A stretch of 64,000 bases of DNA from the NCBI GenBank assembly GCA_051294375.1, contig CM119268.1, positions 19,751,820-19,815,819 of the forward strand, in the 5' to 3' direction. Source of the DNA: Paraspadella gotoi. Taxonomy: Eukaryota; Animalia; Chaetognatha. The notes beneath the pieces are model-generated. The model saw only the letters and a list, made by a program, of their open reading frames with translations, had not been told where the DNA came from and ran no database searches. This document shows positions 37,058-64,000 of this stretch, piece by piece. Position numbers and translations under genes: made by a program. Position 1 is the stretch's first letter. Every line of letters begins with the position of its first letter.

Positions 37058-37845
37058 GGATCCCCGGGCCAAGACATCTCTCAGGTTCTTCAAGCCTGAG
37101 AGGTGTCTGACAAGACGGTTACCATAGTGGGAGAGAGAGAGAGCGCGACCTTTGACCTTTGACCCCGACCACATCGAGGAGTGGTTGGACCACACCGCGG
37201 TGGAATTCGGCGCCACCGGCGTCACCAATCCGGCGGAGAAGAAGGCACAAATCCTCAGTGCCATCCCTATCTCCAGGCACCGGCTGATTCCACACGCGCT
37301 GCGCATCGACGAAGGTCATGACGCCCACAACAACCTTGTCACCCACTTGAAAAACATCTATAGTGAAGACGCCAACCGGCGCGCCACAAAGGCGTTGAAG
37401 ATGACGTCGTTGAACAGCGTCACTCCCTCTCAACACCTTTCTGCAATAGACGCCGTCCTTGAAGGCCTCACCATCGATCACATCAGGGCCGCCATCTTGG
37501 CCGCAGCCCTTCCACAGAGTGTCAGGGAACACGCCGTCAGGAAAGACAAGAACCCTGTCGACATCGCCAAAGACGCCGACGAGTTCTTCCTCCCTTCTGG
37601 CTAACTCTGCAGCTCTGATAGCGCCTCAAATTTTGTGAACTACATCTCCTCCATTGAGGTCGCAGTGGACGAGCCACTGGACATCCCAAACGAATCTCAA
37701 TCGACGCCGACGATGCTGCCATCTCTTACGCAAACGCAATCCGCCGACCACCGCCGCGCTTAACGCAGCGCCCCTTTTCGCAGCAATGTCCGCAGCAGCA
37801 ACGTCTGCAGCAACAGCGCCGCCCAATTCTGACGCCTCGCTCTGC

Positions 37846-38849
37846 ACCCCTACGCGAACAATATATCGTTTTTGGACTATTTCCTTTCCAGAGGGTGGCG
37901 GCTGTGGAAACGTGCGGACTTGTCGGAGTGGTTGGAAGATGCGAGATTCGAGGTTGTCAGCCAGGTTGCGATAACAACGTATTACAAATATTCAGACAAT
38001 AATAAATGGACAATATACTTGAAGGAGATACAACGATGTTAAAATGTAGTTGATAACATTACTAATTTACTTTGGACGTCAATTAAAAAGAGAAATTTGA
38101 ATGAGAGAAACCTAACAAAGTAAGGAGAAGAAATCAGCCGACGACGACGACGATGGTGACTGATGCTTCGGTGAAATGCTTCTTTGTGACTGAGGTTATC
38201 TTGATGACCCAGGTCAACTTGAGTCGCCAGAACTTCATGCATATCTAAATAATTTTACTAACATTGTTATCACAACTGTTATCGATTCGACTGCTTTAAT
38301 TCCTCATGATAAAAAATAAATTATGGTAGTTGTAAAGAGAAGAAGTGAAACAAGTATTTTTGTCATTTTCAGAAGTTTTTTATCACGTCTCCCAACTAAC
38401 ATTTTCTATCTTCATGTTTTGAACATAATTTATTTATTTATTTAGGGGCGCCAATTTCTCCCATTTTGCTCAATTTTTCGGTAATTCATAATTTGAAGAA
38501 TTTAAAAAATTTATAATATCAATATTTTATGTTTTAAATCATAAAATCTGTGAATATTACTTTAATTTTAGCAATAATATATGACAAAATATTAATTAAA
38601 ACTGACATCTTTAAATTCATAAATTGTAATTTTTTTTGCATTTTTTGACTTTCGGGCCTATTAATAATAGCCAGTTTATAATAGTATTATAAACTGGCGA
38701 GGACGGGAAAACTGGGCGATCGAATTTTAGTTTTTTATACCCGAGGTAATAAGTTTATATCTAAGTCAAAAAATCAAGAGGGCTCGAAGTCAGATTTTTC
38801 ATGTTTTGTATTTATACTCCGCGCTAGCGAACATCCTCCCAGTGAACTC
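37846..38849. mobile_element. ~1-kb AT-rich insertion splitting the Gypsy-2 gag zinc knuckle
   Basis: gag reads ..SLC before and HYHFGTNAHKC after the insert. Boundaries approximate. Confidence 0.5.
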
Positions 38850-41567: not shown

Positions 41568-41773
41568 TGTGGACGAACAACTAGAACACGCAACCTTGGT
41601 CTAACCACTGACCTTATTTCAACCTTACCCTCGATTGTTTTGCTCTTCTCTTTATGGCCATACTTTGACCTTGTAAATATCCATTGTTATAGCATCTGAG
41701 CTTTTGACTGTTATCGTTATTTAACCTTGTTGAAGAATAAACCATTCTTACTCTGAAACTTGTTGCGTCCACA
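41568..41773 (+). mobile_element. Gypsy-2 3' LTR (206 bp)
   Basis: Follows the PPT. Terminal inverted repeat TGTGGACG...CGTCCACA. AATAAA at 41736-41741. Confidence 0.85.
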
Positions 41774-41892
41774 CTACCACCTCTTTCCCCCGCCAATATG
41801 ATAGGAAGGGTAACAGATGCGGTATTTTGTCCATCGTCAGATTGAAAACTGATGTTCTGTATGCCTCCACCCCGGCACCGCCTCTCTTTCAG

Positions 41893-42039
41893 GATCTCGA
41901 GGAGGCCGTCTCCCGCGAGGCAACGCGTCTCAACCTCTCCGGCGCTGCGCTGCTCAAGAATTTGGGTCCGCAGCGCGCAGCTTTCGAGAATCGAGTCGTG
42001 AGAAGATTGCATGAGGAGATGCCGTGGTATCATCACACG
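41893..42039 (+). CDS. SYK: Syk-family kinase exon 3 (interdomain A, start of C-SH2)
   Basis: ttcag|DLEEAVSREATRLNLSGAALLKNLGPQRAAFENRVVRRLHEEMPWYHHT|gt. Resembles Syk NLQGQAL..AHEKMPWFH. 147 bp, phase 0/0. Confidence 0.88.
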
Positions 42040-42237
42040 GTGGGTTTGAGGGAGGAAGAAGGGAATGGAAGGGGAGAGAAAAGAGGGAAGAGGAGACAAA
42101 GGAAATAAGGAAGAGGGATAAAAGGAGGGCGAGAAGGGAGGATGGAGAGGGAAAAAAAGAAAGAAAGAAAGAAAGAAATGGAGAAATAAAGAAATGGAGA
42201 AATAAAGAAATGGAGAAACAAAGAAATAAAGAAACAA

Positions 42238-42570
42238 GTGGCTGCGCCAATACATGTAAATCGCTTTCAAGGGCTTAAACTGAACTATTACTGCGGCACT
42301 AATAATATTTTTTTAAATTTGCATCATTTTTAACTATTTCATTTTTTCAACTTGCATTATTTTTTCAGCTTGCATCAATTTTTTAGCTTGTATCATTTTT
42401 TTAGCTTGCATTATTTTTTTAACTTGTATAATATTTTAACTTGTATCATTTTTTCAGCTTGCTTAACTTTTTTAACTTGCATACCTTTTTAACTTGCCTC
42501 ATTTTTTTAACTTGCATCATTTTTTCAACTTGCATCATTTTTTCAACTTGCATCATTTTTTTAACTTCAG
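42238..42570. repeat. Dispersed repeat head plus ~19-bp minisatellite (TTTTTTCAACTTGCATCAT)
   Basis: GTGGCTGCGCCAATACATGTAAATC..head and the same minisatellite recur at 54484-54740. Confidence 0.7.
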
Positions 42571-42659
42571 TTTTTAAAAAAAATATGAATAATAAAAAAA
42601 ATTAAGATAAAAAATATAGGATATAATATTAATTAAAAACGAAAATTTTCGTGGAACAA

Positions 42660-43773
42660 CAATAAAGTTTTTTTTATTAACTTTGGACATGTTTCGGCTT
42701 ACAACTCAAGCCTTCATCAGCATTTGAAATCACAAATAATTTATTTCACAAACATTGAGAGAGATAGAGAGAGGGAGAGTTCCAACAAAGAATTTAGTAA
42801 AGGAAAGTGGTCAGATGTGAGGACAGGTGAAGATGAGGACAGGGATGAAAAGGAGAGTGAATGTGAAATTGGTGAAAAGGGAGAGAGAGAGGGAGAGAGA
42901 GACACAGAGAGAGAGAGAAATAATAGTAAATAATAGGCAATGTACAACAAAGATAAATAGTATTATAAACTAGACATAATAAAGATTGAAATAAATTAAA
43001 TTAGGCTGTTTGTGCATTTTTGAAATAGTGAAATATTGAAAATGAAATGGAAAAGGATAGTTTGTGAGGGATAGTTAAGATAAAGAGGTGAGAGAAAAAT
43101 AAGTAAAGAAAGAGCTTAAAATGAGCTGGTCCCCCCCCTCCAGCCGGGCAAATGAGGGATATTACTGATGAATTTTGGTTCATAGGCCTGTCATAGGTTG
43201 AGAGAGTATTGTGGAGGAGTTAGTTAGGCTGGGATCTGGTAATGACCCACCTGGAAAAATGCCCAGTGCCACTCGAATGTCTCTCTGACCTGATAAGCCT
43301 GCCGAATGCCCTCCTCTCACCTGACGGTGAGGTGATTGCCTGTTCTGGCCTGTTTTGGTACAGGAGATACAGACTCCTCCCCCTCCTCCTGCAGCCGTCA
43401 TTTTGGGCGACGCTCGGTACGAGGAGAGATTTTGAGCTCTTTTTTTACTTATTTTTCTCTTACCTCTTTATCTTAACTATCCCTCACAAACTATCCTTTT
43501 CCATTTCATTTTCAATATTTCACTATTTCAAAAATGCACAAACAGCCTAATTTATTTTATTTCAATCTTTGTTATGTCTAGTTTATAATACTATTTATCT
43601 TTGTTGTACATTGCCTAATGTATACTATTATTTCTCTCTCTCTCTGTGTCTCTCTCTCCCTCTTTCTCTCCCTTTTCACCAATTTCACATTCACTCTCCT
43701 TTTCATCCCTGTCCTCATCTTCACCTGTCCTCACATCTGACCACTTTCCTTTACTAAATTCTTTGTTGGAACT

Positions 43774-43800
<27 letters not shown>
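42660..43800. mobile_element. Penelope-like remnant with ~370-bp inverted repeat and hammerhead motif
   Basis: ~42757-43128 is the reverse complement of ~43433-43800. Shares TGGTCAGATGTGAGGACAGG with 56310/59960. Confidence 0.65.
42682..42726 (-). ncRNA. Minimal hammerhead ribozyme
   Basis: Minus strand: CTGATGA-A GGCTT gagttgt AAGCC GAAAC ATGTC. Confidence 0.7.
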
Positions 43801-43805
<5 letters not shown>

Positions 43806-44499
43806 ATCGAAAGTTATGTTAATTTCTATGAATTTCATCTCATCGTTTCCACGAGAGGAAATGCCAAGGCGACAGTCAGAGTCTTAGACTGTTTGAAATT
43901 TTAAAATTCTTTTTATTTTGGAAATCATGTTTAAATGCGACGTAACAAATCATGTGCCTTTTTTCTCCGTTTTTGTAAAACATTGTAAAAGTTACAAAAA
44001 ACGCCCATGCCAAATACATCAGAGCACCTTCTCAATTATAATAGTTTATAGTTTTGTGTTAGGTTTTCATTTTGGTTTTATATTAAAAATATATTTTTTT
44101 ATATTTTTTTTATTATTCTTTGATTTTTATCTTCTTTTTATTAAGTTAATTTTGCGGACAACCTGCATTTTTTCTTCTATATTGCTTCAATTCTTTTGTG
44201 TCTCTCTCGCATATATGCCGTCATTAAAAGATATGAAAAAAATAAACAGGTAATTTTGCATATTTTTATATTTTGTAAAAATATAAAAAAAATAATTTTT
44301 AAAAATATTTATGATAAAAAAATTGAAAAAACATTTACTTTTTTGTTGAAGAGCAGGTGCAAGTGAAGATCTAGTGGGTCCAGATAAAATTTTTTGAATG
44401 TTCCTTTGTCTTACAAAAGGCCTCCTGTTTTGTTAAGTAGAATAGGGTGAAAATACAAAGAAGATCTAATAGGACTGTTCTTATGTTTCAGAAAAGATA

Positions 44500-45050
44500 T
44501 TAGATTAGATTAGATTTATTCAAGAAGGACGGGCCGGGGATAGGCAATGGGTCGCAGTTACAAATAATCACAGACAGGTTTACAATTAATCACAGCATAA
44601 CGAGAACAATAGTTATCATCGGAAACCAATTTGGTCAAAGTATAACGGCACCGAACAGGTGAAAAGGAATTTTCAATCCATTTCTAAATCCATATCTTTT
44701 ACTGTAGTCTGTAATTGAATCTTTTCATAACTCTTTTCAAATACAAACAGTATCCTATACAAAGAGAACAGGGTTAAATCTTAAGTTTTAGAAATAATTT
44801 TTACAAAGGATAATTATTAGGTACTTCACTTAAAAATTCGAAGGGACATATTGCCCTTCTGCTCGCCTAAATTGTTCATGTTTTCAATGTATTTAGGTAA
44901 AAGGGGCGTTTTTTCAATCAAACCTCGCATTTGCAAATGTGCCCTCTTAATTATTCTAATACGCATGGTTCTAAACCCAAATAATCCAAAACTAAGAAAT
45001 TTGACATTGATCTTGGTACATTAGATATACTTTTTAAAAAATCTAAATTC
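44500..45050 (-). mobile_element. LINE (CR1/L2-like) 3' fragment inserted in a dispersed repeat
   Basis: (TAGAT)n tail and AATAAA on minus. The homologous host repeat at ~55240 lacks this insert. Confidence 0.45.
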
Positions 45051-45893
45051 AACTGTCTCTAATTTTATATACTAAAACTAAATTTCATTGCTATTTTGTT
45101 TAAAAACGCTTTTTTGTGGAGCCATCTGGTTTATTAAGACCAAAACAGACAAAAATTTGCTATTTTGTGTAAAGCGATGCAAGTGAAGATCTAGTGGGTG
45201 CAGACAGAAGAGCAAATTTCTATAGAAAATAAAGGAAAATGCTCATAGTAGAAAAAGTAAAAGACAAATCCTCGTAGTACAAAGACGGGAAAAAAAAATA
45301 GTGCTATTGGAAAAAAAAAATTTTAAGCGATTTACAATCTTGCAGGTGCATATCAAATTTAATATGCATGTTCCTTTGTTTCTTAAAAGAGAATAAGATA
45401 TCTGGTAAATAATTTTTTAAAACTTAATCAAAAGTGCTATCTTGTCTTACTGAATGCTCCTTTGTTTAGGGCGCCCTCTAGTAAATAAAGCTTAAAAAAT
45501 AAAAAACTTAATTTGAAGAAATGAAAGAAAACCTCCTAGTAGGAGAGAGGAGATGACGAGAAGAAAAAAAAATGACGGATTAAAAAAAGAAGAAAAAAAA
45601 ATGACCGAAATTCAAGGGTAAAATAATCGCTGAAAGCGATTTACAATAAAAAAATAAATGAAATGGCAAAGAAAACCTCCTAGTAGGAGAGAGGAGATGA
45701 CGGGAAGATAAAAACATGACGGACTAAAAAAAATTGACCAAAATTCAAGGGTAAAATAAATCGCTGAAGCGATTTACAAGAAAAAATAAATAAAGAGAGG
45801 AATCAGAAAGATAGGAAAAAGATGGGGGAAAAAGGAGAGGAAGGTAAAAAGATAGATAGATAGATACTCCCCGCTTATTCCTCCCACCCCAAG

Positions 45894-46556
45894 ATCTCCC
45901 GCCAAGAGGCCGAGGATCGCATCTCCGTCTCGGGTCACGTGGACGGCCTTTTCCTAGTCCGCATATCTTTCGCCGACGGCACAGGATCCTCGACAAAGCG
46001 TTCAGCGGCGCTGACGATCTCTTTCGACGGCGGGTGTCGGCATTACCGGGTCAGCGCAGACACGAGGGATCGAGTCTCCATCGAGAAGAGTTCAAAGTTC
46101 AACTCCATCATGGAGCTCATTGATCACTACTACTACAACCAGGACGGCCTACTCCATCAGCTCACTCTGCCGTGCCTGGCGCCAGGCTGTAAACCCCCGG
46201 CCAGCAAGCGCCTGTCCACCACGTTCTCGCCGGCGTTCAATGCGGCGGCGGCGTCGAACCATTCTCCTTCGTCTTCCGATCCTCCCACGCCGCTGCCGAG
46301 GCGGCAGCCGCAGGCGCTTCCGCCGCCGCCAACGTCTTCGTGTCAGACTCCACCGCCGACGCCGCCGCAGCCCACATTCGAATCTTCGCCACCGACTCCG
46401 GGTCTAACCTCTCAGATTCGGCGCCATCGACCGTTGACGCCGCCGAGGGACGAAACCAGCGTCCTTTTGTCGCAGGCGCCGCCGCCGCCGCCGCCGAGAC
46501 CGCAATCAATGCGGGCGCCGCAGCCGACCGAGCCTGAACCAGATCTTTGCCTACAA
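45894..46556 (+). CDS. SYK: Syk-family kinase exon 4 (C-SH2 plus Pro-rich interdomain B)
   Basis: aag|ISRQEAEDRI..DGLFLVR..HYRV..KFNSIMELIDHY..DGLLHQLTLPC. 3' end inferred at CAA|gtagat (phase 0; weaker donor). Confidence 0.85.
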
Positions 46557-46629
46557 GTAGATAAAAAAAATAATGATAACTATAATGATACAAATAACAA
46601 ATTAATTATGATATTGATGCATATTGTTA

Positions 46630-46633
<4 letters not shown>

Positions 46634-46700
<67 letters not shown>
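46634..46700. repeat. (AAT)n microsatellite
   Basis: About 22 perfect units. Confidence 0.95.
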
Positions 46701-46702
<2 letters not shown>

Positions 46703-47117
46703 CTTGTCTTGTAAGAGTGATGGAGGCCTTAAACCACCAAAGCCTGTCCAAAGTTAGGGGAAAGATAGCTTATTTATTGAATGAAAGGATAATTTGTATA
46801 TTGGTTGTACCAATTTCATAATTCAGCTCCTTGTATTTTGATGCTAGTGCGGAGTACAATAAGTATTCCCCAGAGTCTAATAAGTAAGGCAGTGGTCTTT
46901 TCATACAATTGAACAGTTCTTTGAAATATTTTCCCTTCCTTATAGGGAAGCCAAGGTACACCTGGGAGTGAATAAATGAGACTGTGAGTAGATTCTTGAT
47001 TGAAAGCTGCAGGGACTTGCTATGTCCATTGTCTTCTAAGAGTGATGGAGGCGCTTTAAACCACCAAAGCCTGTTCCAAAGTCAGGGAAAGATAGCTTAT
47101 TTATTGAATGAATGGAT

Positions 47118-47358
47118 TTGGGCGGTATATTCACACCGCCTCACGTCCATCATCTTTCAGCCAAATCCATTGGCTCAGAGGGGAACACACCATCCCAGGC
47201 GTAGTGTTCCATCCACAGTCCTAACGGATTTCCCTTCTGCGTTGGCAAAGCGAGGACGTCCTTAGGTAACCGCGCCAGTGACTAGAGGCGTCACTGAGTG
47301 TCGGAGCCCCCAAAGCCAACAGTGAGATGCCCCATCCAAATGGGCATCACAGGCCATA
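47118..47358 (-). mobile_element. Solo LTR family C
   Basis: 4-bp TSD GGAT (47114-47117 / 47359-47362). Empty-site sequence visible in the paralogous repeat at ~46785. Confidence 0.75.
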
Positions 47359-47379
47359 GGATAATTTTTATATTGGTTG

Positions 47380-47613
47380 TGAAGAGACAGTAATTATTGT
47401 TATGAGTTAGTGACAGAACTGTTCAATAAAAGCAGTCTCTGAGCTTCGGATCAGGCTATAACACCGTGTTACAGGCGGGGTAAGCGCCCCGTCCCTCTTA
47501 ACTGCTAGGCGGCCACCGGGTTAGAACCCCGGACCTTTGGGTTGGGAGGCGAATGACTTGTCTCCGGCACCAATGGCCGCTGATGAACGGTTGGTGGATT
47601 TTAGTCCACCATA
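47380..47613 (-). mobile_element. Solo LTR of TRIM family B
   Basis: Matches the LTRs at 63080-63313 and 63501-63717. TSD gttg/cttg. Confidence 0.85.
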
Positions 47614-47765
47614 CTTGTACCAATTTCATTAATAATATTGTGGTTTTTCCTTCCGTTTCGTTGTCGTTGAGGATCAGAAAGAAAATTGCAAAAAAATGGA
47701 AATTTTTATTCTAGTAATTACAATAATAATGATAAAATTAATAATGGTAATATCGCTAATAACAG

Positions 47766-48056
47766 GACATTTGGGACGAACCGCCCGACGACCTCCCGCC
47801 GGCGCTCATCGGCGTTGGAGGAGCCGCGAACGCCGCTTTCGTTGGCGACGACTCTGGAGCCAACTTCGATCCCGAGACCTACGGTCGCGTCCCCAAGGAG
47901 CTCTTTAAACTCGACCGGCGCGAGATCATCCTCCAGAACCCGATCGGGACGGGCAACTTCGGTGCCGTCCTCAAGGGCGTCTGGATTCACGAGATGGAGA
48001 ACATCCCCGTCGCGGTGAAGTCGTTGAAGTCACCTGAAGGAGGAAGCACCGATCAG
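47766..48056 (+). CDS. SYK: Syk-family kinase exon 5 (linker end plus kinase subdomains I-II)
   Basis: cag|DIWDEPP..LDRREIILQNPIGTGNFGAVLKGVW..PVAVKSLK..DQ|gtgatg. 291 bp, phase 0/0. Not in the ORF track in this frame. Confidence 0.92.
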
Positions 48057-48486
48057 GTGATGGAACCGAAGGCGGTTGAGTCTGTTTAAGCATTTTTTTT
48101 TCAATTTTATTTATTTTTTTTTTAACTTAGGTAGAAGAGAAATAAAATAAATATTTGTTTATTTACAACGATAGCTTTATCAATCGGAATTTTTCGGCTT
48201 TATTTACCATCAACGGAATGGACATATGAACGGACTAGGTTGGCCTAGTGATGTGATTGCTTGTCTCCTTCACGAATCATCAGAATCATCAGAATCGGGA
48301 TGAATCATCAGGGCTTTGACATATGTGAAAATTTAATATATTTTGTTTGAGAGATTATCCCTAATCCTTAACCCTGATCCCCAACCATAATCCCTAACCC
48401 ATTTCATCAGCAAAATTCATAACCTAAACCTTCGTCTCTTGTTGGTTCATTACTAAATAACTTGAAATCTCAATTCACCAACTTAG

Positions 48487-49871: not shown

Positions 49872-51055
49872 AATTAAAACATTTATTAGTAATCATAAAT
49901 TAGTAATCAAAATAATAAAAATTCAAGTAAATGTGACTTATGTTTTTTCCATTTAAACTCATTTCCACTGGCACAATTCCGTCAAAACTTTATATCTAGC
50001 TTCTTCACACACTTTCCTACCCGCTCACAAAATTTCATCTAAATCTATTATGGGTTAAAATAAGTAAATGATTCAAGTAAATGTGACTCCTATTTTTTTC
50101 ATTAAACTCATTTCCACTCGTACGTTTCCACCGAAACTTTATATCAAGCATCGTTACACATTTTTCTACCACACAAAAAATTTGAACTCAATCTATCCAT
50201 CCAATTCTGATTAATTAGAGTACTTATTGGTTAAAATAAGTAAATATTTTAGTAAATGCGACTTAAGTTTTTTCCACCTTAAACTCTTTTCACTCACACG
50301 ATTCCGTCGAACTTTATATCCAGCTTTATCACACACTTTCCTACCCCACACACAAATTTTCATTCCAATCCAACCAGCCAATCACGAGTTATTGGAGCTT
50401 TTTGCTAAGGTGGGACGGATGGACGGATTGATTGACTGATTAATTAATTATTGATTAATTAATTGACTAATTGATTAATTAACTGATTAATTATTTGATT
50501 TATTAATACATCCTGTATATACATTTAATATAAAAGGAAGAGAAGAATCAAAAATCAATTAGTGAAACAGGTTTTTTGTTTTTTTTTCCATTTAAACTCA
50601 TTTCTACTCAAAAGATTCCATCGAAACTTGGTTTCCTGTTCAATCACACACTTTCCTACTCACATACAAAATTCCAGGTCAATCCGATAATTAAGTGGTA
50701 ATTAAGCTAACTTGGTCAACTTGCATAATTTAATAAACTTGCATAATTTGGTCAACAGACATAATTTGGTTAACTGACATAATTGGTCTACTGACATAAT
50801 TTGGTCACTGACATAATTTGGTCAACTGACATATTTAATTCATTACGATAATTGGTCAACACGCATAAATTTGGTCAACTGGCATAATTTTAATCAACTG
50901 GCCTAATTTGGTCAACTGGCATAAATTTGGTCAACAGCATAATTTGGTCAACTTGCAGAACTTGATCAACTTGCCAGAATTTGGTCAACTGGCATAATTT
51001 GGTCAACTTTAAGAATTTGGTCAACTGGCATATTTTGTCAATTGGCATAATTTGG

Positions 51056-51119
<64 letters not shown>

Positions 51120-51893
51120 GAAGAGAGATAGAGAGAGAGAAACTTTAAAAATTCAAATAAATGTGTCTTTGGTTTTCTAATTGAACTCTTTTCCACTCCT
51201 ATGATTCCATCAAAAAATTTATATCCAGCTTTATCACATACTTTCCTACCCACACACAAAATTCAATTTCGATTTATCTATCCAATTTTTAATAAACATA
51301 ATAATTATGAGTAAATTTAAGTAAAAATACTTCAAGTAAATATGACTTTTGTTTTTTCCATTTTAACTCATTTCCACTCGCACGATTCCATCGAAACTTT
51401 ATATCCAGCTCAATCACACACTTTCCTAACATCATACAAAATTTCAAGTCAATTGCCTATCCAACTCATGAGCAATTGGCGTTCAAATAGTGAAATATAT
51501 TTTTTTGGTTTTTCCATTTAAACCAATTTCCATCCGCACGCGCACGATTCCCTCGAAACTTCATATGCATCTCAATCACACAGTTTCCCACCCACACACA
51601 AATTTCATACCAATCCATCCATCCATCACGAGTAATTGGAGTTTTTGCTAAGGTGGGACGGACGGACGGACGGACGGACGACCGGACGGACGGACGGAAC
51701 GGAACGACGGACGGACGGACGGACGGACGGACGAGACGGACGGACAGACATCATTTTTTTGCATAATTTATCATAATTCGATGTTCTGACATAATAATAA
51801 GTGTGTGCCCGACAAATATTGAGGGGGCGGACCGACGGACCGACAAAGTGAGTTATAGAGTCGGGATCTGCTGATAAGCAAATCCGACTAAAA
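48758..51893 (-). mobile_element. Long Helentron-like family H1 copy with internal satellite arrays
   Basis: H1 termini, several ~150-bp units (TTTCCATTTAAACTCATTTCCACTCGCACGATTCC..), and an 18-bp minisatellite. Confidence 0.65.
50710..51060. repeat. 18-bp minisatellite (AATTTGGTCAACTGGCAT)
   Basis: About 19 tandem units. Duplicated at 52560-52910. Confidence 0.9.
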
Positions 51894-52289
51894 ACTCGGC
51901 CCATTACAACAATTTTTTAGAGACTTTTCAAAAAAATTGGAAAATGCCCATTTTTTTTTCAATCTTAATACCTTTGTTTAAAAAACAATTTAGAGTCATG
52001 ATTTTGGCAGAAGATTTAGTAGCTATTAGTTTTATTTGGTCTTACATGCCAATAAATAAAAGAAACACAATTATTTCTAGATGTAACATTATATTTATTT
52101 TTAAATAAGCACTGATCTTCAGAGACTTCTGTCTCCCTCAAAGGTGCAAAACAAAATGAGACACAAAATTTAAAAAACAGTTTAAGGTAAGGTTTCTACT
52201 CTTCCATTTGGCTGAAAATTTCCTGACCCAGGGGTTATTTGGGATATGAATGTAAAANNNNNNNNNNNNNNNNNNNNNNNNNGAGAGAG

Positions 52290-52918
52290 ATTTTAATTAA
52301 TTATTGATTTAATTAATTGACTAATTGATTAATTAACTGATTAATTATTTGATTTATTAATACATCCTGTATATACATTTAATATAAAAGAAAGAGAATC
52401 ATAATCAATTAGTGAAACAGGTTTTTTTTGTTTTTTCCATTTAAACTCATTTCTACTCAAAAGATTCCATCGAAACTTGGTTTCCTGTTCAATCACACAC
52501 TTTTCCTACTCACATACAAAATTCCAGGTCAATCGATAATTAAGTGGTAATAAGCTAAACTTGGTCAACTTGCATATTTAATAAACTTGCATAATTTGGT
52601 CAACAGACATAATTTGGTTAACTGACATAATTTGGTCTACTGACATAATTGGTCAACTGACATATTTGGTCAACTGAACATAATTTAATCAATTACGATA
52701 ATTTGGTCAACCGGTCATAAATTTGGTCAACTGGCATAATTTTAATCAACTGGCCTAATTTGGTCAACTGGCATAATTTGGTCAACAGGCTAAAATTTGG
52801 TCAACTTGCAGAACTTGATCAACTTGCAGAATTTGGTCAACTGGCATAATTTGGTCAACTTTAAGAATTTGGTCAACTGCATTATTTGTCAATTGGCATA
52901 ATTTGGTCAATCAATCAA

Positions 52919-52949
<31 letters not shown>

Positions 52950-54098
52950 TCAATCAATCAATCAGAGAGAGATAGAGAGAGAATTTAAAAATTCAATAAA
53001 TGTGTCTTTTGGTTTCTAATTGAACTCTTTTCCACTCCTATGATTCCATCAAAAAATTTATATCCAGCTTTATCACATACTTTCCTACCCACACACAAAA
53101 TTCAATTTCGATTTATCTATCCAATTTTTAATAAACATAATAATTATGAGTAAATTTAAGTAAAAATACTTCAAGTAAATATGACTTTTGTTTTTCCATT
53201 TTAACTCATTTCCACTCGCACGATTCATCGAAACTTTATATCCAGCTCAATCACACACTTTCCTAACATCATACAAAATTTCAAGTCATTGCCTATCCAC
53301 TCATGAGCAATTGGCGTTCAAATAGTGAAATATATTTTTTTGGTTTTTTCCATTTAAACCAATTTCCACTCGCACGATTCCCTCGAAACTTCATATGCAT
53401 CTCAATCACACAGTTTCCCACCCACACACAAAATTTCATACCAATCCATCCATCCAATCACGAGTAATTGGAGTTTTTGCTAAGGTGGGACGGACGGACG
53501 GACGGACGGACGACGGACGACGACGGACGACGACGGACGGACGGACGGACGGACGGACGGACGGACGGACGGACGGACGACGGACGGACAGACATCATTT
53601 TTTTGCATAATTTATCATAATTCGATGTTCTGACATAATATAAGTGTGTGCCCGACAATATTGAGGGGGCGGACCGACGGACCGACAAAGTGAGTTATAG
53701 AGTCGGGATCTGCTGATAAGCAAATCCGACTAATAAACTCGGCCCATTACAACAATTTTTTAGAGACTTTTCAAAAAAATTGGAAAATGCCCATTTTTTT
53801 TTCAATCTTAATACCTTTGTTTAAAAACAATTTAGAGTCATGATTTTGGCAGAAGATTTAGTAGCTATTAGTTTTATTTGGTCTTTACATGCCAATAATA
53901 TAAAAGAAAACAAATTATTTCTAGATGTAACATTATATTTATTTTTAAATAAGCACTGATCTTCAGAGACTTCTGTCTCCCTCAAAGGTGCAAAACAAAA
54001 TGAGACACAAAATTTAAAAAACAGTTTAAGGTAAGGTTTCTACTCTTCCATTTGGCTGAAAATTTCCTGACCCAGGGGTTATTTGGGATGAATGTAAA
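52290..54098. repeat. Near-identical duplicate of 50440-52257 across an N gap
   Basis: Colinear; differences are mostly single-base indels. Confidence 0.9.
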
Positions 54099-55471
54099 AT
54101 ATTAGAACAAGAAAATAACAAATTAAAAAGATTGTCCTGAGAAAGTATTCACATTAAAAAGAATAAACTTAAAAAAGTAAATAGAAATGAAGGAAATTTG
54201 AGCAATGAATGGGATAAGGCTCTTAAGGTCACTTTTGAAAACAAAAGAAAGAAACTACTTGGTTTAAGGTCATCTCAAGCCTATAGAATTAAAAGACAGA
54301 GAAAAGAAGTGGCCAAAATCAGGAGAATAGATTTGTAAATTTTGTAAATTTTGTAAATTTTGTAAATTTTGTTATGCACCTTTGAAGGAGACAGAAGTCT
54401 CTTAAGATCAGTGCTTATTTAACAAATTTGAGCAAACAATGTCGGATCTGCCCACGATAATTAAGCGGTAATCAGTTAAACCAGTGGCTGCGCCAATACA
54501 TGTAAATCACTTTCAAGGGCTTAAACTGAACTGTTACTGCGTCAATAATATTTTTTTAAATTTGCATTATTTTTTAACTTTTTCATTTTTTTAACTTTTA
54601 TTATTTTTCAACTTGTATCATTTTTTTAACTTGCATACTTTTTTCAACTTGTATACTTTTTTCAACTTGCATACTTTTTTCAACTTGCATAATTATTTTA
54701 ACTTGCATAATTTATTTAGTTGCAGCATTTTTTCAACTTTCAACTATCTAGTAATCAACTATCAAGGCAGTGAGGAAGTTGAAATGTGTGTCTATTTTTT
54801 TGTTTCATATCAATTCATATATTTTTTGTTTGAATTTCCATTTAATTATGATTTACTGCAATATGCAAATTAGATTATATAGTACTTTTTCATTAATTTT
54901 TTTTGATAGTAAGGTCTGGCGAGATCATTATACTTTTAAGGTTTTTTCTTCTATATTGCTTCAATTTTTTTGTGTCTCTCTCGCATACATGTCATCATTA
55001 AAAGATATGAAAAAAATAAAACGGGTAATTTTTAAAAATATTTACAATAAAAAAATTTTAAAAAACCCTTGCTTTTTTGTTGAAGAGCAGGTGAAAGTGA
55101 AGATCTAGTGGGTGCAGATAAATTTTTTTGATGTTCCTTTGTCTTACAAAAGGCCTCCTGTTTTTTAAAGCCCTCTAGTAGAATAGGGTGAAAATACAAA
55201 GAAAATTTAATAGAACTGTTCTTTTGTTTCAGAAAAGATATACTAAAACTAAATTTCATTGCTATTTTGTTTTAAAAACGCTCTTTTGTTTGTGGAACCA
55301 TCTGGTTTATTAAGACCAAAACAGGCAAAATTTTGTGTAAAGCGATGCAAGTGAAGATCTAGTGGGTGCAGACAAAAGAGCAAATTTCTATAGAAAGTAA
55401 AGGGAAAATGCTCATAGTAGGAAAAGTAAGAGACAAATCCTCGTAGTAGGTAGCAAAAAATAAATAGATAG

Positions 55472-55748
55472 TATGGTGGACTAAAATCCACCAACCGTTC
55501 ATCAGCGGCCATTGGTGCCGGAGGCAAGTCATTCGCCTCCCAACCCAAAGGTCCGGGGTTCTAGCCCGGTGGTCGTCTGGCAGTTAAGAGGGACGGGGCG
55601 CTTAACCCGCCTGTAACCTGGTGTTACAGCCTGATCCGAAGCTCAGGGACTGCTTATATTAAATGGTTCTGTCATTAACACTTATCAATAATTACTGTCT
55701 TTTCATTTGTGAGCCCGACTTTCGAACACAACAGCAACAACAACACTT
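55472..55748 (+). mobile_element. TRIM family B: 5' LTR (55472-55705), degenerate PBS and start of internal region
   Basis: TATGGTGG...TTTTCA followed by TTTGTGAGCCCGAC and the CAA-rich internal sequence. Confidence 0.85.
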
Positions 55749-56157
55749 GACACAGACGAGCACCGCCACCTTTTACACCGTCTAATTCTCGTTATGGCTT
55801 CGACCTTCTTCTCTCACGATCGCTATCACTACTACGTTGTTTCTGTTTCATTTTATATCAATATTCTTTACTCTCTTATTTCTGTTTTTGATATCAGCCC
55901 TTCTATAGTGATGGGTTGAGCATCAATGTCATGAATGCTGAGATCGGATTCTATGAGTGGGTAATGAGGTAGTTAAGGTTGATCATTTATGAGCCGAGAC
56001 AGTATAATAACGTCAGGTTGTTTCGGACAAAATCACGCCTTCAAAATTTTCTATAAATTTTTGTTTTGAGTCACCGCAAACATTATAAAAATATTTTAAT
56101 TAATTAATTTAGAGAAAGCAAAGAATTTTGAATTTGTAACAACGATTTTTAATTAAT

Positions 56158-56204
56158 AGTTGGACATGTTTCGGCTTGTTTACTTCAAGCCTTCATTAGC
56201 ATAT
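56158..56204 (-). ncRNA. Hammerhead ribozyme motif with mutated core (duplicate at ~59803-59848)
   Basis: CTAATGA instead of CTGATGA. Stem II GGCTTG/CAAGCC, then GAAACATGTC. Confidence 0.5.
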
Positions 56205-56239
56205 GACATTCAATAATAAATTTGGTAAAAAAAGAGTGT

Positions 56240-56274
<35 letters not shown>

Positions 56275-58331
56275 GGTAAAAGTTTTTCCAACAAAGTGGT
56301 GAGACAGAATAGTGGTCAGATGTGAGGACAGGTTGAAGGTAAGGGCAGATTGAGTGAGTGGTGAAAAGAAGTGAAACTTGTTAAAGAGAGAGAGAGAGTG
56401 AAAGAGAGAGAGAGAGAAACAAAACAACAGGGATAACAAATAAATGAAGATACATTTTTGCAATGTACAACAAAGATAAAGAAGTTTAATTAATTAAATA
56501 ATTAATGATGGCAACTACGACAATGATAATACCGACGATGACAAATTGATTGATTGCTTAATTTTTTGATTGATTGATTGAATATTTGATTAATTGATTG
56601 AATAATTAATTAACTGATCAGTTCTGGCATTGTTAACACAAACTTGTTTGTTTTTTTGTCTTTTCATTATGACAAAAGAAATGATTACCCTGATGATGAT
56701 TATGATGACAACGAGGATAGCACCATCATGATAGATTGAATGATTGATTGATCAAATAAAATAAATTCATATCAGGCCTCTTAATTTTTAGGTCTTTTGT
56801 CAGGTCACTGACCAGGACAAAAGCAACAACGACGTTGGAGATGACAATGATAACACTGACATTGTTTAATTGATTGATTAATTAATTGATTAATTAATTA
56901 ATTGGTTCTTGTTTTTTTTTCATTTAAACTCATTTCCACTCGAACGATTCTTATAATTTTACAAATCTTACAATTTTTCATGGTAAAAATTTCACTTGTT
57001 ATTTGTTAACAAAAAGATTGTTTAAAATTATTCTACAAATGAATTACATGTCTAAAGAGAGTATTTTTATAAATAATAACAAATGTAAAATTTTTAAAGG
57101 AAGGAAGCGATGTGCACTCGAAACCGAAAGCGATCCGGGCTAAAAAAGTAAGGATTGCACCCGAAAACGGGAGCGGGAGGGGTCTTGGAAGCGCCGGATT
57201 GGCAGCGGCGGAAAAATCGATCGCTTCCACATCTCTGCACAAATGTATCATTTATGCTCTCTCAAAAACTCACAAACTCAAAAACTCAAACTCAAAAAAT
57301 AACATCTGTCCTTCATCCTGTCCTCACCTCTGACCACTCACTATTTGTCTCACTATTTTTCCCCCATTTGCCTATTTTTTTTTGCCTTTGGCCCCCTCTT
57401 TCATTTTCTTCCCTTCTCATTTTCTTGTTTTCTCTTTCCTCTTCCCTCTCACTATGTTTAAGAAAATCTTTAATATGCATTATAAGAAAGGATATTAACG
57501 GTAACGGAGGTTTTTATTTTAGTTTTGGTTGCCTAGCAAATTTATTAAATCGACAAATTTTGCGGAAATTTTTCCACAAAATCTGTCGATTTTCAGAAAA
57601 AACAAGTCCTGACGCTTTCCATTGGGTTAAAAGGATGCGGTTTTTTTTATCAACGTCAGTAAGTACCCATCTTTTAAAACTAATAAATGAGTTGAAAATA
57701 TTTTCTTTATCATAAATAAATGCAAGTCACAATAAGTCACAAATTAAAAGTTGTTTTTAAAAATTATTTGTGGCTAAACAAAAAGAGTTTTTTGATAATT
57801 TTGTAGGTGTTTAAAGCTTATTCTGTGGACTATATTTTCTGTTAGTTTAAGCCAATTTAAACTATTTTTGTTTAATAAATTATGATAAAAAACTAAAACT
57901 GCGACTTTTTGACTTGTCAACTTTAAAATTAATTCATAAGTGAACTATGAATGATATAAAGAAAATATTTTACTCAAGGGTGAAGAAGATAAGGAAGAAA
58001 ATAATTCCAAAATAAAAAAATTTTCTCTAATTTCCTTGGCATTCAAATTTGAAGACGAAAGTGAAAATGGACAAAAATGGACATTATTTTTTTTCCTAAA
58101 AGTTGTAAAAATGTTACTCTTATATGATTAGAAATAGCTGGAGATAGTTTTAACCAATCCGTATTTTGGCCTAATTTATATTATGGTGCAAATTAAATTA
58201 ATTTTGTTAATAGTAACTGAACAATACTGGAAAAAGTAGTTTTTTCTCTGAATGCGAGGATCGTAAGCAGAGGCTATCATATTCATTTTTTTTTTGCTGA
58301 ATTTTTNNNNNNNNNNNNNNNNNNNNNNNNN

Positions 58332-58535
58332 CTTCAGGCGACATGCCTCAACCTGGCGATGCACTTTTCCGCCCACAACACATCAGGCGACATGCCTCAA
58401 CTTGGTGACGACTTTCCACCAACAGCAACAATTCACTGAATAGAACGCAAGACTTCTCCCTACGGAGGGGGGGATGTATGGTGGACTAAAATCTACCAAC
58501 CGTTCATCAGCGGCCATTGGTGCTGGAGGCAAGTC
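58332..58535 (+). mobile_element. TRIM family B: internal region, PPT and truncated 3' LTR
   Basis: GGAGGGGGGGATG then TATGGTGGAC.. at 58477. Cut off by the element starting at 58536. Confidence 0.85.
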
Positions 58536-59884
58536 CAGAGATGTGGACGCGATCTGGAAAGCGTAAGCGAACACTGTGGAAGCGGCCGATTTTTGAAGAA
58601 CCCGAAACCGGGAGCGATAGAAAAATTAAGAATAAAGGATTGAACCCGGAAGCTATAATAACCCTGCGTGTTCGCTTCCTGGTTATTTGTTTTTAATAGT
58701 TAGAAATGAAAGGTATTTAATGTAATAAAATCTTTGCAACCCCTGCTCTTTCTTGATTGTCTTTTTAAAATTGTTTTTTCAATATTTATTTTCAACATTT
58801 AAAATTGTTTGTTCCTATAATTTTTTATTCACTTTTTCTTATTCTCTTCTTTTATTTTTTGTTTTCTTTTATTCTCTTTTCCTCTTTGGTCGAGAATCTA
58901 TGAAAAAAATTACATATTTATTTTTTTAATTATTCTTTTTAATATATTCAAATAAAATCTGAGCTGAAAAAAGATTTTTTCTATCTGAAAAAAACTGTAA
59001 TTAAGTTAAATTAAAATTTAAATTAAACTTTTTTAATTCTATAAAACTAAAAATTTTATTTCTTATATTTTTATTATTTTTCTTTAAATTTAAGTCTTTT
59101 TTTTTAAAATCCATAACGTTTTTCATGTTACAAACAAGTTTAAACCAAAGGATTGATCTGTTTTATTGGCAATATTGCATAATATTATGCTTATACATAC
59201 TTAAATCTCTAACATACTCTCTCTCTCTATCTTCTTTCTTTTTTCCCCTCTTGCACTGACAAAAAAGCAAATAAAAAAAAAATTATAAAATAAATAAATC
59301 AAAAATATTAATAAACAAACAATGCCGGATCTGCCCATGATCATTAGCGGTAATTAATTGATTAATTAATTGAAAAAAAATAAATTATTTAATAATTACA
59401 TATTAATTAATTAAAATAATAACATCGAACATTTGGGAGCTCAAATTGATTTGAACAAAGACGACAACGACGATGAATACAATGACGAAAACGACGACGA
59501 AGTCTTTGTACTTTGTGAGCCATAGTACAGTAGTGGTCAATAAGAATGACCTGATTTTACCTAATCTTGTTATGGCTGACCTTTTTCTCAGCCAATGTAA
59601 ATACTAGTTGTTATTATTATTTTTATCATTTTTACTTTTTTACTGTTTTGATAATACCAGGTTTTTTATCACAAAAAAATACGCCTCAAAATTTTCTATA
59701 AATTTTTGTTTTGAGTCACCGCAAACATTATAAAAATATTTTAATTAATTAATTTAGAGAAAGCAAAGAATTTTGAATTTGTAACAACGATTTTTAATTA
59801 ATAGTTGGACATGTTTCGGCTTGTTTACTTCAAGCCTTCATTAGCATATGACATTCAATAATAAATTTGGTAAAAAAAGAGTGT

Positions 59885-59919
<35 letters not shown>

Positions 59920-60884
59920 GGTAAAAGTTTTTCCAACAAAGTGGTGAGACAGAATAGTGGTCAGATGTGAGGACAGGTTGAAGGTAAGGGCAGATTGAGT
60001 GAGTGGTGAAAAGAAGTGAAACTTGTTAAAGAGAGAGAGAGAGTGAAGAGAGAGAGAGAGAGAAACAAAACAACAGGGATAAACAAATAATGAAGATACA
60101 TTTTTGCAATGTACAACAAAGATAAAGAAGTTTAATTAATTAAATAATTAATGATGGCAACTACGACAATGATAATACCGACGATGACAAATTGATTGAT
60201 TGCTTAATTTTTTGATTGATTGATTGAATATTTGATTAATTGATTGAATAATTAATTAACTGATCAGTTCTGGCATTGTTAACACAAAACTTGTTTGTTT
60301 TTTTGTCTTTTCATTATGACAAAAGAAATGATTACCCTGATGATGATTATGATGACAACGAGGATAGCACCATCATGATAGATTGAATGATTGATTGATC
60401 AAATAAAATAAATTCATATCAGGCCTCTTAATTTTTAGGTCTTTTGTCAGGTCACTGACCAGGACAAAAGCAACAACGACGTTGGAGATGACAATGATAA
60501 CACTGACATTGTTTAATTGATTGATTAATTAATTGATTAATTAATTAATTGGTTCTTGTTTTTTTTTTCATTTAAACTCATTTCCACTCGAACGATTCTT
60601 ATAATTTTACAAATCTTACAATTTTTCATGGTAAAAATTTCACTTGTTATTTGTTAACAAAAAGATTGTTTAAAATTATTCTACAAATGAATTACATGTC
60701 TAAAGAGAGTATTTTATAAATAATAACAAATGTAAAATTTTTAAAGGAAGGAAGCGATGTGCACTCGAAACCGAAAGCGATCCGGGCTAAAAAAGTAAGG
60801 ATTGCACCCGAAAACGGGAGCGGGAGGGGTCTTGGAAGCGCCGGATTGGCAGCGGCGGAAAAATCGATCGCTTCCACATCTCTG
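58536..60884. mobile_element. Non-autonomous TIR DNA transposon (hAT-like termini)
   Basis: CAGAGATGTGGA(c/a)GCGATC ... GATCGCTTCCACATCTCTG terminal inverted repeats with CCGAAA/CGGGAGCG sub-terminal motifs. No TSD found. Confidence 0.5.
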
Positions 60885-61950
60885 CACAAATGTATCATTT
60901 ATGCTCTCTCAAAAACTCACAAACTCAAAAACTCAAACTCAAAAAATAACATCTGTCCTTCATCCTGTCCTCACCTCTGACCACTCACTATTTGTCTCAC
61001 TATTTTTCCCCCATTTGCCTATTTTTTTTTGCCTTTGGCCCCCTCTTTCATTTTCTTCCCTTCTCATTTTCTTGTTTTCTCTTTCCTCTTCCCTCTCACT
61101 ATGTTTAAGAAAATCTTTAATATGCATTATAGAAGGATATTAACGGTAACGGAGGTTTTTATTTTAGTTTTGGTTGCCTAGCAAATTTATTAAATCGACA
61201 AATTTTGCGGAAATTTTTCCACAAAATCTGTCGATTTTCAGAAAAAACAAGTCCTGACGCTTTCCATTGGGTTAAAAGGATGCGGTTTTTTTTATCAACG
61301 TCAGTAAGTACCCCATCTTTTAAAACTAATAAATGAGTTGAAAATATTTTCTTTATCATAAATAAATGCAAGTCACAATAAGTCACAAATTAAAAGTTGT
61401 TTTTAAAAATTATTTGTGGCTAAACAAAAAGAGTTTTTTTGATAATTTTGTAGGTGTTTAAAGCTTATTCTGTGGACTATATTTTCTGTTAGTTTAAGCC
61501 AATTTAAACTATTTTTGTTTAATAAATTATGATAAAAACTAAAACTGCGACTTTTTGACTTGTCAACTTTAAAATTAATTCATAAGTGAACTATGAATGA
61601 TATAAAGAAAATATTTTACTCAAGGGTGAAGAAGATAAGGAAGAAAATAATTCCAAAATAAAAAAATTTTCTCTAATTCCTTGGCATTCAAATTTGAAGA
61701 CGAAAGTGAAAATGGACAAAAATGGACATTATTTTTTTTCCTAAAAGTTGTAAAAATGTTACTCTTATATGATTAGAAATAGCTGGAGATAGTTTTAACC
61801 AATCCGTATTTTGGCCTAATTTATATTATGGTGCAAATTAAATTAATTTTGTTAATAGTAACTGAACAATACTGGAAAAAGTAGTTTTTTCTCTGAATGC
61901 GAGGATCGTAAGCAGAGGCTATCATATTCATTTTTTTTTTGCTGAATTTT
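59682..61950. repeat. Near-identical duplicate of 56035-58306
   Basis: Colinear over ~2.27 kb. The first copy ends at an N gap. Confidence 0.9.
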
Positions 61951-62106
61951 TTTAACTTGCATCATTTTTTTCAAATTGCATCATTTTTTCACGTAATTAA
62001 TTAACTAATTAAAGTATTCATAAGTATGCATAAATAATAAAAATTCAAATCAACTTGACTTTGGTTTTTTCCATACAAACTCCTCGATTCCATGGAAAAT
62101 TTATAT

Positions 62107-62351
62107 TGCGCTCTAAGGCGATAAGTGGGCTGAAGATGACTATCCGCAACTTCTTTAACCCCTCCAGCAGCCATGGAACGAGTCCTGGGTTTGAAGGTTT
62201 TCCACGAACCGAAGTTGGTTTACGGCCATCCGCACGTTAGGTACTGGGTTGGGATTGAACCCACTTTAATCAATGAGCCACCGGGTCAGTGGGTCACGAC
62301 TGAAGGTGTAATGCTTATAGGCAGGGTGAACTTATGCTGTGCCCGACTACA
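62107..62351 (-). mobile_element. Diverged solo LTR of TRIM family A
   Basis: GAAGATGACTATCC..GGGATTGAACC..ATGAGCCACCGGGTCA..GCCCGACTACA, inserted in an H1 satellite unit. Confidence 0.75.
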
Positions 62352-63079
62352 GCTCAATCACACACAAAATATAATGTCAATCTATCCATCCAATTATGAT
62401 TAATTCGAGTAAGTATGGTAGCCATAGCCGATGAAATTTAAATGCTAATGTATACAGCGTTAAAATAATCTATCATGACCATAGATTATGGTATTAAAAT
62501 ATTTTTTGTCAAAAATGCTTTCTTCTGAGGGTACTCGCCTAATTAAAAATATTATATTACTATATAGAGCAAAAAATATTTTTTTAAAATCTTAAAATTT
62601 TTTGATGGATTCTGATAGAGCATAAAAAGTTAAACAAAAAATATAATTACAGCTTTTAAAAAATTCTTACGTTTCTAAGTGAAAATAAAGAAAACTGATA
62701 AAATCATCGAAAGATGATGATGATGATGATTTTTTACAGTTTTTCTTATTTTTGACACACTTATCGTAAAAATATTTAAAAAAAGAATCATACTTTGTGT
62801 AGACAACTTTTTATGAGCTATCTGAATATGGTCTTAAATTAAAAAAATCAAAAAAAAATGTTTTGACCTTTTTTATCAATAAATAAATATTAAAAAATTA
62901 ATTATTAGGGTATAGAGCCATATTAGAAATTTTTTGTCCATTGAAAGTATTCTTAAAAATGTCTAAATATTCGTTTGAGCATGTACTCTCTCTAAATTTT
63001 TGACTCACCCCATTGAGTAATTATGGGTTAAAATTATTAACAAAGTTTGATTTTATTTTTGCAACGAATTTTATTGTTA

Positions 63080-63717
63080 TGAAGAGACAGTAATTATTGT
63101 TAAGAGTTAGTGATAGAACCGTTCAATATAAGCAGTCGCTGAGCTTCGGATCAGGCTGTAACACCATGTTACAGGCGGGTTAAGCGCCCCGTCCCTCTTA
63201 ACTGCCAGACGACCACCGGGCTAGAACCCCGGACCTTTGGGTTGGGAGGCGAATGACTTGCCTCCGGCACCAATGGCCACTGATGAACGGTTGGTGGATT
63301 TTAGTCCACCATACATCCCCCCTCCTGTAGGGAGAAGTCTGTTGCGTCTCTTCTGTGAATTGTTGTTGTTGGTGGAAAGTTCGTCACCAAGTTGAGGCAT
63401 GTCGCCTGATGTGTTGTGGGCGGAAAGTACATCGCCAGGTTGAGGCATGTCGCCTGAAAGTGTTGTTGTTGCTGTTGTGTTCGGAAGTCGGGCTCACCAA
63501 TGAAGAGACGGTAATTATTGTTATGAGTTAGTGATAGAACCGTTCATATAAGCAGTCCCTGAGCTTCGGATCAGGCTGTAACACCATGTTACAGGCGGGT
63601 TAAGCGCCCCGTCCCTCTTAACTGCCAGACGACCACCGGGCTAGAACCCCGGACCTTTGGGTTGGGAGGCGAATGACTTGCCGCTGATGAACGGTTGGTG
63701 GATTTTAGTCCACCATA
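63080..63717 (-). mobile_element. Complete TRIM family B (638 bp)
   Basis: LTRs 63717-63501 and 63313-63080. PBS TGGTGAGCCCGAC 63499-63487. PPT GGAGGGGGGATG 63325-63314. Perfect 4-bp TSD GTTA (63076-63079 / 63718-63721). Confidence 0.92.
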
Positions 63718-63725
63718 GTTACAAG

Positions 63726-63768
63726 AGCAGACATGTTTCGCCTCACAGTACGAGCCTTCATCAGCGCA
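63726..63768 (-). ncRNA. Minimal hammerhead ribozyme
   Basis: Minus strand: gcg CTGATGA-A GGCTC gtactgt GAGGC GAAAC ATGTC tgc. The plus-strand mirror has ATGATGA (lacks the first core C). Confidence 0.65.
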
Positions 63769-64000
63769 TGATGAAGGCTCGTACTGTGAGCCGAAACATG
63801 TCTGCTTTTGTAACAATAAAATTCGTTGCAAAAATAAAATCAAACTTTGTTAATCTCTCAAACAACGAAAAAAGAAAGGATAATTACTAAAGCGGGTCAA
63901 AATTGAACACTTTTTATAACTTCTAATTCTCTCAAAAATTTTTTTCCCTTCTATTACTAAATCGATTTTCAATGCAACTTTTTGAATTAGTTCATTGGGT

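Follow-up and report, generated by a model that had tools for sequence, protein, structure and literature searches.

How a retroelement with a non-coding interior could be transcribed, processed and multiplied is the question raised by a 638-bp element on the minus strand (63080-63717) of a 64,000-nucleotide stretch of the genome of the chaetognath Paraspadella gotoi (contig CM119268.1, positions 19,751,820 to 19,815,819; this whole stretch is hereafter called the window). The answer that we propose for this element, named TRIM-B, is plausible if a shade short of probable: TRIM-B would be a high-copy terminal-repeat retrotransposon in miniature (TRIM) that combines a tRNA-like promoter for RNA polymerase III (Pol III) with a type-P5 twister ribozyme cutting the RNA in both long terminal repeats (LTRs), and the resulting unit of about 420 nt would be circularised and copied by Gypsy proteins. 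The original prediction, made from the letters of the DNA, had seen a hybrid of short interspersed element and LTR element, transcribed by Pol III and mobilised by Gypsy proteins; its tRNA-bearing TRIM and its Gypsy hallmarks were retained in our analysis, and the twister had been overlooked.

The anatomy of TRIM-B is that of a TRIM. Shorter than 1 kb, it is divided (all on the minus strand) into a 5' LTR of 217 nt (63501-63717), a non-coding interior of 187 nt (63314-63500) with an internal duplication of about 45 nt, and a 3' LTR of 234 nt (63080-63313), and its termini read 5'-TA...CA-3'. No open reading frame of at least 120 amino acids was found within the element. The primer binding site (PBS, 63487-63500, minus strand) agrees in 13 of its 14 letters with the tRNA-Trp PBS of Gypsy-32_NVi (PMC10886601, Fig. 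S2, compared by eye), and a polypurine tract (PPT) followed by a TG dinucleotide (63314-63326, minus strand) lies directly before the 3' LTR. The two LTRs differ by four substitutions and 17 gap columns, of which 16 form a deletion that removes the A box from the 5' LTR and one is a separate single nucleotide. The target-site duplication (TSD) GTTA is present on the left (63076-63079) and on the right (63718-63721), and it is proven by the opposite arm of the palindromic host repeat, which shows the unoccupied site with one GTTA; a perfect TSD is readable in the window for this copy only. The two LTRs, the interior, the PBS, the PPT, the TSD and the A-box deletion had been correctly announced; of the LTR lengths given (about 220-234 bp), the larger is exact and the smaller is 217 nt.

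The 10-nt junction at the PPT is common to TRIM-B and to two Gypsy relics (near 4725 and 41560), and the TG that follows the PPT does not recur at the three integrated left ends, where the letters are TA. We infer that this loss fits a 2-nt end processing by integrase. No hammerhead core was found inside the element. The host repeat, in one arm of which TRIM-B is inserted (flanks 63051-63079 and 63722-63839), has at 63764 (minus strand) a minimal core CUGAUGA...GAAA which we take to be a Penelope-type hammerhead; similar cores occur at 42720, 56199 and 59844 (minus strand) and related palindromes at 13079-13542 and 42757-43794. Matches to Rfam microRNAs at 63733-63799 were rejected, being the flanking palindrome itself.

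Three further copies of the family, 91-96% alike at aligned positions, were found where they had been expected: a solo LTR (47380-47613, minus strand) flanked by GTTG and CTTG, equal at three of four positions; an LTR with PBS and start of the interior (55472-55748, plus strand; tRNA-like unit 55505-55577, twister motif 55589-55646); and an interior with PPT and the first 60 nt of an LTR (58333-58535, plus strand, one nucleotide from the predicted start at 58332), cut by an adjoining N gap. Beyond the window, parts of TRIM-B were found in 11 of the 13 sequencing runs listed, nine of these from one organism. Contigs with distinct flanks ended exactly at 63080 in 132, 64 and 35 cases in runs X1, X5 and X9 respectively, and exactly at 63313 in 100, 43 and 18 cases. 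Of the 7 contigs from a run of a second organism, one ended at 63080 and another spanned the junction of interior and LTR; run X11 gave a single TRIM-B contig of depth 2. Contig depth does not measure copy number, but the family is clearly abundant. Run X9 was only guessed to be RNA; it behaves like DNA and says nothing on expression. The A-box deletion is rare in the family, since depth over it is about 1% of that of neighbouring bins in run X1. An LTR end joined straight to an LTR start (63313/63080), head to tail and without interior, was seen in 7 contigs of X1 and 2 of X5. In scans of metagenomes and of GTDB, the matches all lay in bacterial DNA and were attributable to chance.

A scan for the PBS led to a second family, TRIM-A (about 6301-7089, minus strand, boundaries approximate). 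TRIM-A and TRIM-B have almost no BLAST similarity, yet TRIM-A has an A box, a perfect B box and, in both LTRs, the twister motif, and its PBS starts as in TRIM-B. No TSD was found for TRIM-A, and its 3' LTR contains an insertion of about 95 nt. At 62114-62351 (minus strand) lies a decayed LTR relic, 68% like TRIM-A, in which the two boxes survive together with the twister's upstream half. At least two TRIM families bearing tRNA-like and twister motifs therefore appear, from their letters, to coexist in this genome.

Each LTR includes, as the original prediction had stated, a unit derived from a tRNA. In the 3' LTR this decayed unit covers 73 nt (63208-63280, minus strand). Its anticodon place (63246-63244) reads CCC, and it includes an A-box-like segment TGGTG...AGG (63261-63272, minus strand) and a B-box-like segment containing GGTTC (63219-63228, minus strand), in which no variant reaches 4%; each box has one mismatch to the consensus of Pol III promoters. 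Built from 22 bacterial tRNAs, a covariance model whose E-values are rough placed the four TRIM-B LTRs as the top four of 19 listed matches in the window (24.5, 18.8, 16.1 and 12.8 bits; E 8.8e-6 to 0.072, and 0.0055 for the 3' LTR), the acceptor stem and the anticodon, variable and T loops all falling in register over the 73 nt. The solo LTR has the best tRNA score. With relaxed settings, ARAGORN gave each of the three complete LTRs a 73-nt cloverleaf with a CCC anticodon (scores 85.5-89.4, the 3' LTR having 85.5); these ranked 3, 6 and 10 among 269 candidates. Counting either strand, 12 of 2000 LTR shuffles reached 89.4 and 22 of 2000 reached 85.5, and an A and B box pair with one mismatch each appeared in 79 of 3000 shuffles.

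The acceptor stem and the boxes that had been described are present; a 5-bp T-stem can be drawn only by slipping the register, and the A box begins one base late. As the D and anticodon stems pair poorly and the T arm is one base short in the tRNA register, this is not a working tRNA. The letters quoted for it belong to the copy at 55472, the LTR at 63080 having a T at acceptor position 2. An identity as tRNA-Gly, as proposed, would depend on the anticodon alone; the best matches among the 22 bacterial tRNAs are Trp, His and Arg. A search of viral contigs for a eukaryote-type tRNA-Gly gave one tRNA-Gly(CCC) among 38 loci, a match chosen by LTR letters and not independent, and none among 15 loci of a second set. 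Two minor observations concern the same region. A second A/B-like pair at LTR bases 148 and 194 has 4 mismatches and was taken as chance, and antisense letters resembling C/D boxes lie over the tRNA-like unit of another copy (55497-55540, minus strand; Rfam sR38, E 0.12), probably also by chance.

Judged by its letters, this unit is likely an internal Pol III promoter. Several results weigh against such a role. Rfam has no tRNA match to TRIM-B at E<=10; default ARAGORN found no tRNA in TRIM-B; our best score of 24.5 bits, in our own model, is under the 29-bit cut-off of Rfam; and in the 63080-63717 copy the A box of the 5' LTR is deleted. The boxes are not conserved in excess, which had been put forward as a check: 2 of the 20 variant sites common in the family (frequency of at least 4%) fall in the 22 box positions, about as expected by chance. 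The lack of an Rfam or default ARAGORN match and of excess conservation, together with the mismatch in each box, the late A box and the poor D and anticodon stems, would also fit an ordinary Pol II-driven TRIM (or a twister retrozyme) whose tRNA likeness had been left over without a function. The start of the A box could moreover be a relic of an LTR/PBS junction, its first 9 letters being the tRNA-His PBS of other Helenus families (PMC10886601). We consider such an element very unlikely, for the 73-nt tRNA geometry is in register and TRIM-A shows a perfect B box at the corresponding position of its LTR. Indeed, three of the 20 variants improve the acceptor stem, and another (63266 G>T) gives the canonical A14 in a minority of copies, that is in 103, 50 and 27 contigs of three runs.

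The twister motif begins 11 nt behind the tRNA-like unit. It is located at 63139-63196 (minus strand) in the 3' LTR, with a predicted cut at 63182/63181, and is intact at 63559-63616 (minus strand) in the 5' LTR, with a predicted cut at 63602/63601. The core letters GA, UAA, GC and U...AAGC are in place, the pseudoknot pairs are Watson-Crick, one of them being flipped, and the G and A which we take to be catalytic are intact. Natural type-P1 twisters were found to tolerate imperfections of P1, P2 and P4, not those of the pseudoknots (PMC11662667), and both pseudoknots of TRIM-B are preserved. Our reference set consisted of 124 phage twister loci, among which Rfam called Twister-P5 in 4 of the 20 tested. 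A descriptor which includes both pseudoknots and allows one P1 pair and two P2 pairs recovered 71 of the 124 loci. In the window its only matches were three of the four full TRIM-B LTRs; among shuffled sequences it matched 0 of 100,000 made from the LTR and 6 of 707 made from the window. In the solo LTR a single change, of the A that follows the cut, prevents a match, and both TRIM-A LTRs fail the descriptor by one small indel each. A model trained on 24 phage twister 3' halves (2 of 26 were dropped, the pattern having caught a wrong start) placed five TRIM LTRs first, with E from 5e-4 to 0.11 (0.014 for the 3' LTR of TRIM-B) and 1.8 for the next match.

In an alignment of seven LTRs, 93.6% of cells pair, and 7 of the 17 twister pairs are changed on both sides, including, between TRIM-A and TRIM-B, two of the three pseudoknot pairs; control alignments that had been slid contained at most one such pair. 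These compensatory changes, in families with almost no BLAST similarity, argue for selection on the fold. Likewise, three of the seven common variants within the motif are found at the apex of P3. The motif is predicted to self-cut.

Much weighs on the other side. The covariation stands on two to three lineages only, and the descriptor was loosened after the element had been seen. Rfam Twister-P5 has no match to TRIM-B even at E<=10, and gives a TRIM-A LTR 15.9 bits (E 0.54) for a gathering cut-off of 37.6 bits. P2 is reduced to two pairs plus an A.C, an L4 position that is C in all phage examples is G in TRIM-B (its partner compensates), and P4 exceeds that of the pattern-selected phage set by one pair. 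In ViennaRNA folds P3 and P4 form, and a competing hairpin of -11 kcal/mol takes both P2 strands and brings the probability of P2 to 0. Variants of CpG type at two paired pseudoknot positions reach 7% and 11% in X1 and at most 4% in the other runs.

A similar competing hairpin can be drawn in TRIM-A, and the hairpin may serve to switch the ribozyme off, in the manner of plant retrozymes (PMC4918200), or may itself be the conserved feature. The sub-threshold Rfam scores, the short P2, the competing hairpin and the lesions in the solo LTR, in both TRIM-A LTRs and in the relic at 62 kb would also be explained if TRIM-B were a Helenus-type TRIM with a dead twister, left from the tail of an ancestral short interspersed element or Penelope-like element. 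Its Pol III transcripts would then end at a genomic T run, such as the T4 run 47 nt past the 3' LTR, and follow the standard linear LTR route. We hold this to be unlikely, if to be reckoned with, in view of the pairs of the pseudoknot, P1, P2 and P4 that have changed in a compensatory way between the barely similar TRIM-A and TRIM-B and of the variants at the apex of P3.

P1 is in TRIM-B either one pair with a 4-nt loop or a dimer duplex. A hexamer stands in its place (63188-63183) and is self-complementary in all three lineages, with duplexes of -8.3 to -10.7 kcal/mol, self-complementary sequences making up 5.3% of hexamers. Short palindromic stems mark hammerheads that act as dimers (PMC4209133). 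The short-linker architecture is natural, since three of the six phage loci with the same 6-nt linker (L213, L215 and L218) keep the full twister core; only one of these three is self-complementary in the same register, which counts against the hexamer as a dimer stem.

Put together, these motifs suggest the following route. Pol III would start near LTR base 34 and read through the whole element, and the twister would fold and cut after LTR base 132 in both LTRs. Cutting would possibly occur only when the hexamers of two LTR copies pair and supply P1, in which case only full-length transcripts would be cut. The cut-to-cut piece of about 420 nt, devoid of an R repeat, would be closed by RtcB, a step demonstrated in hammerhead retrozymes of animals (PMC7229834). 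A Gypsy reverse transcriptase primed by tRNA-Trp would then copy round the circle and rebuild both LTRs, in the manner proposed for plant LTR retrozymes (PMC4918200), and a Gypsy integrase would insert the product with a 4-bp duplication. The 63080-63717 copy has lost the A box of its 5' LTR, yet its cut-to-cut unit would carry the intact promoter of the 3' LTR. TRIM-B has no T4 run; this was dropped as evidence, since 1420 of 5000 shuffles (28%) lack T4 too.

The same tRNA and twister evidence, and the same lack of an internal T4 terminator, would also fit a Helenus-type TRIM in which the twister serves as terminator. Only the 3' LTR copy would then be cut, the RNA would be linear, from LTR base ~34 to base 132 of the 3' LTR, with a normal R repeat of about 99 nt, and no circle would be formed. 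The order of promoter, then ribozyme, does yield a standard R region, and the blocking hairpin could silence the 5' copy. What makes us regard the terminator as unlikely, a little more so than the dead twister, is that the same motif is present in both LTRs, that a hexamer-paired dimer would assemble both cores and that this explanation has no mechanism to spare the 5' site.

Helenus, the tRNA-type TRIMp3, has animal families described by Kojima in 2024 (PMC10886601), and TRIM-B resembles them in its size below 1 kb, its two LTRs, PBS and PPT without open reading frame, its 4-bp TSD and its A/B-box tRNA unit inside the LTR. Helenus elements use the 3' end of a tRNA as primer (that of Trp also in some wasp families), have several families per genome and share with Gypsy the 4-bp TSD and the 3'-end primer, both of which are found in TRIM-B. 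They differ in that box A of most families is TRGCY and YGG, with GGTTC in box B, whereas box A of TRIM-B begins TGGTG; in addition, TRIM-B has TA...CA termini and a twister motif behind the tRNA unit. Because a tRNA-derived unit lies in the LTR of a TRIM, TRIM-B would be a new Helenus family. Indeed, no LTR of 234 with an interior of 187 and none of the TRIM-B motifs were found among the Helenus families in the portions of PMC10886601 and its supplement covered. The supposition of an undescribed family is thus supported for the family itself, the tRNA-bearing kind of TRIM having already been published as Helenus. The word "twister" is absent from PMC10886601, and where twister-loop letters occur in the supplement they belong to tRNA T-loops or to unrelated matter. 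Cassandra and Ajax (5S-type TRIMp3) are likewise TRIMs whose LTR draws a Pol III promoter from a small RNA; their promoter is derived from 5S, the TSD of Ajax is 5 bp and no ribozyme is described for them in the parts of PMC10886601 covered.

The LTR retrozymes of plants are non-autonomous LTR elements with a 4-bp TSD and a Gypsy-type PBS and PPT (PMC4918200, PMC7761336). Like TRIM-B, they have one self-cleaving motif per LTR, a predicted blocked fold and a cut-to-cut RNA without R (PMC4918200). TRIM-B differs from them by its animal host, its twister instead of a type III hammerhead, its tRNA-like internal promoter, its tRNA-Trp primer in place of tRNA-Met and its smaller unit (420 nt); circles have been shown in plants (PMC4918200), whereas that of TRIM-B is predicted. 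An LTR retrozyme is defined by a hammerhead in each LTR, and the motif of TRIM-B is of the twister type; TRIM-B may therefore work like a retrozyme without being a member as defined. The non-LTR retrozymes of animals and the Penelope hammerheads (PMC7229834, PMC4209133, bioRxiv 10.64898/2026.07.22.740005) are also small ribozyme-bearing retroelements, with RtcB circularisation and with short palindromic stems working as dimers. They differ in that they have type I hammerheads, rely on the Penelope machinery and are without LTRs, PBS and PPT.

Among twisters, the closest are those of type P5 (RF02684), with which TRIM-B shares the core nucleotides, both pseudoknots and the P3 and P4 hairpins; a 3-nt P2 and a 6-nt P1 linker also occur among phage examples. 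TRIM-B departs from them in a flipped pseudoknot pair and in a P1 of which only the palindromic hexamer is left. The known twisters of retroelements, such as the T-variants of Perere-3, head non-LTR RTE elements (PMC8501958, PMC11662667), whereas the motif of TRIM-B is inside LTRs. In the full-text literature searched, the scope of which lies outside most subscription papers and Repbase, we did not find the pairing of a tRNA-like unit with a twister; the twisters found there all belonged to non-LTR RTE elements, phages or viroid-like RNAs, and every LTR retrozyme was a plant element with hammerheads. We tentatively suggest, with rather more doubt than for the function itself, that TRIM-B could be the first LTR retrozyme of animals and the first based on a twister, in which a Pol III promoter, a twister gated by hexamer dimers and Gypsy copying of a circle of about 420 nt would be combined in at least two coexisting families.

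By its presence in the LTRs of two coexisting families, the twister would form a bridge between Helenus and retrozymes. One LTR of 234 nt would unite a Helenus-type promoter, a ribozyme-bearing LTR and a retroelement twister in a small testable system. It bears on how a Pol III transcript without terminator gets its ends, on the replication of LTR elements from circles in animals and on a twister switched by dimerisation, and it suggests that other ribozymes may be hidden under the Rfam cut-offs in TRIM and Helenus libraries.

The window includes other retroelements. Two decayed Gypsy elements (393-4387 and 37128-41770), with stops and frameshifts, have the domain order reverse transcriptase, RNase H, integrase and the PPT junction found in TRIM-B. 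Where the 3' LTR of the first begins (4733-4800), an antisense perfect B box with A-box-like letters upstream resembles the T arm of TRIM-A, and a comparable B box, also antisense, is present at 58646. A Syk-like gene (30287-48060) consists of two SH2 exons and the start of the kinase, and its introns, one of which contains the solo LTR at 47380, are filled with retroelements; its SH2 regions are at most 40% like full-length relatives, with 34-39% identity to named animal proteins. Near-identical duplications of 1.8 kb and 2.3 kb flank gaps of 25 N (50440-54099 and 56029-61951) and are probably assembly artefacts. Finally, a 236-bp repeat is present in two inverted copies (36821-37054 and 47121-47354), weakly matched by the tRNA model (E 0.32); one copy adjoins the solo LTR and the other precedes the gag of the second Gypsy element.
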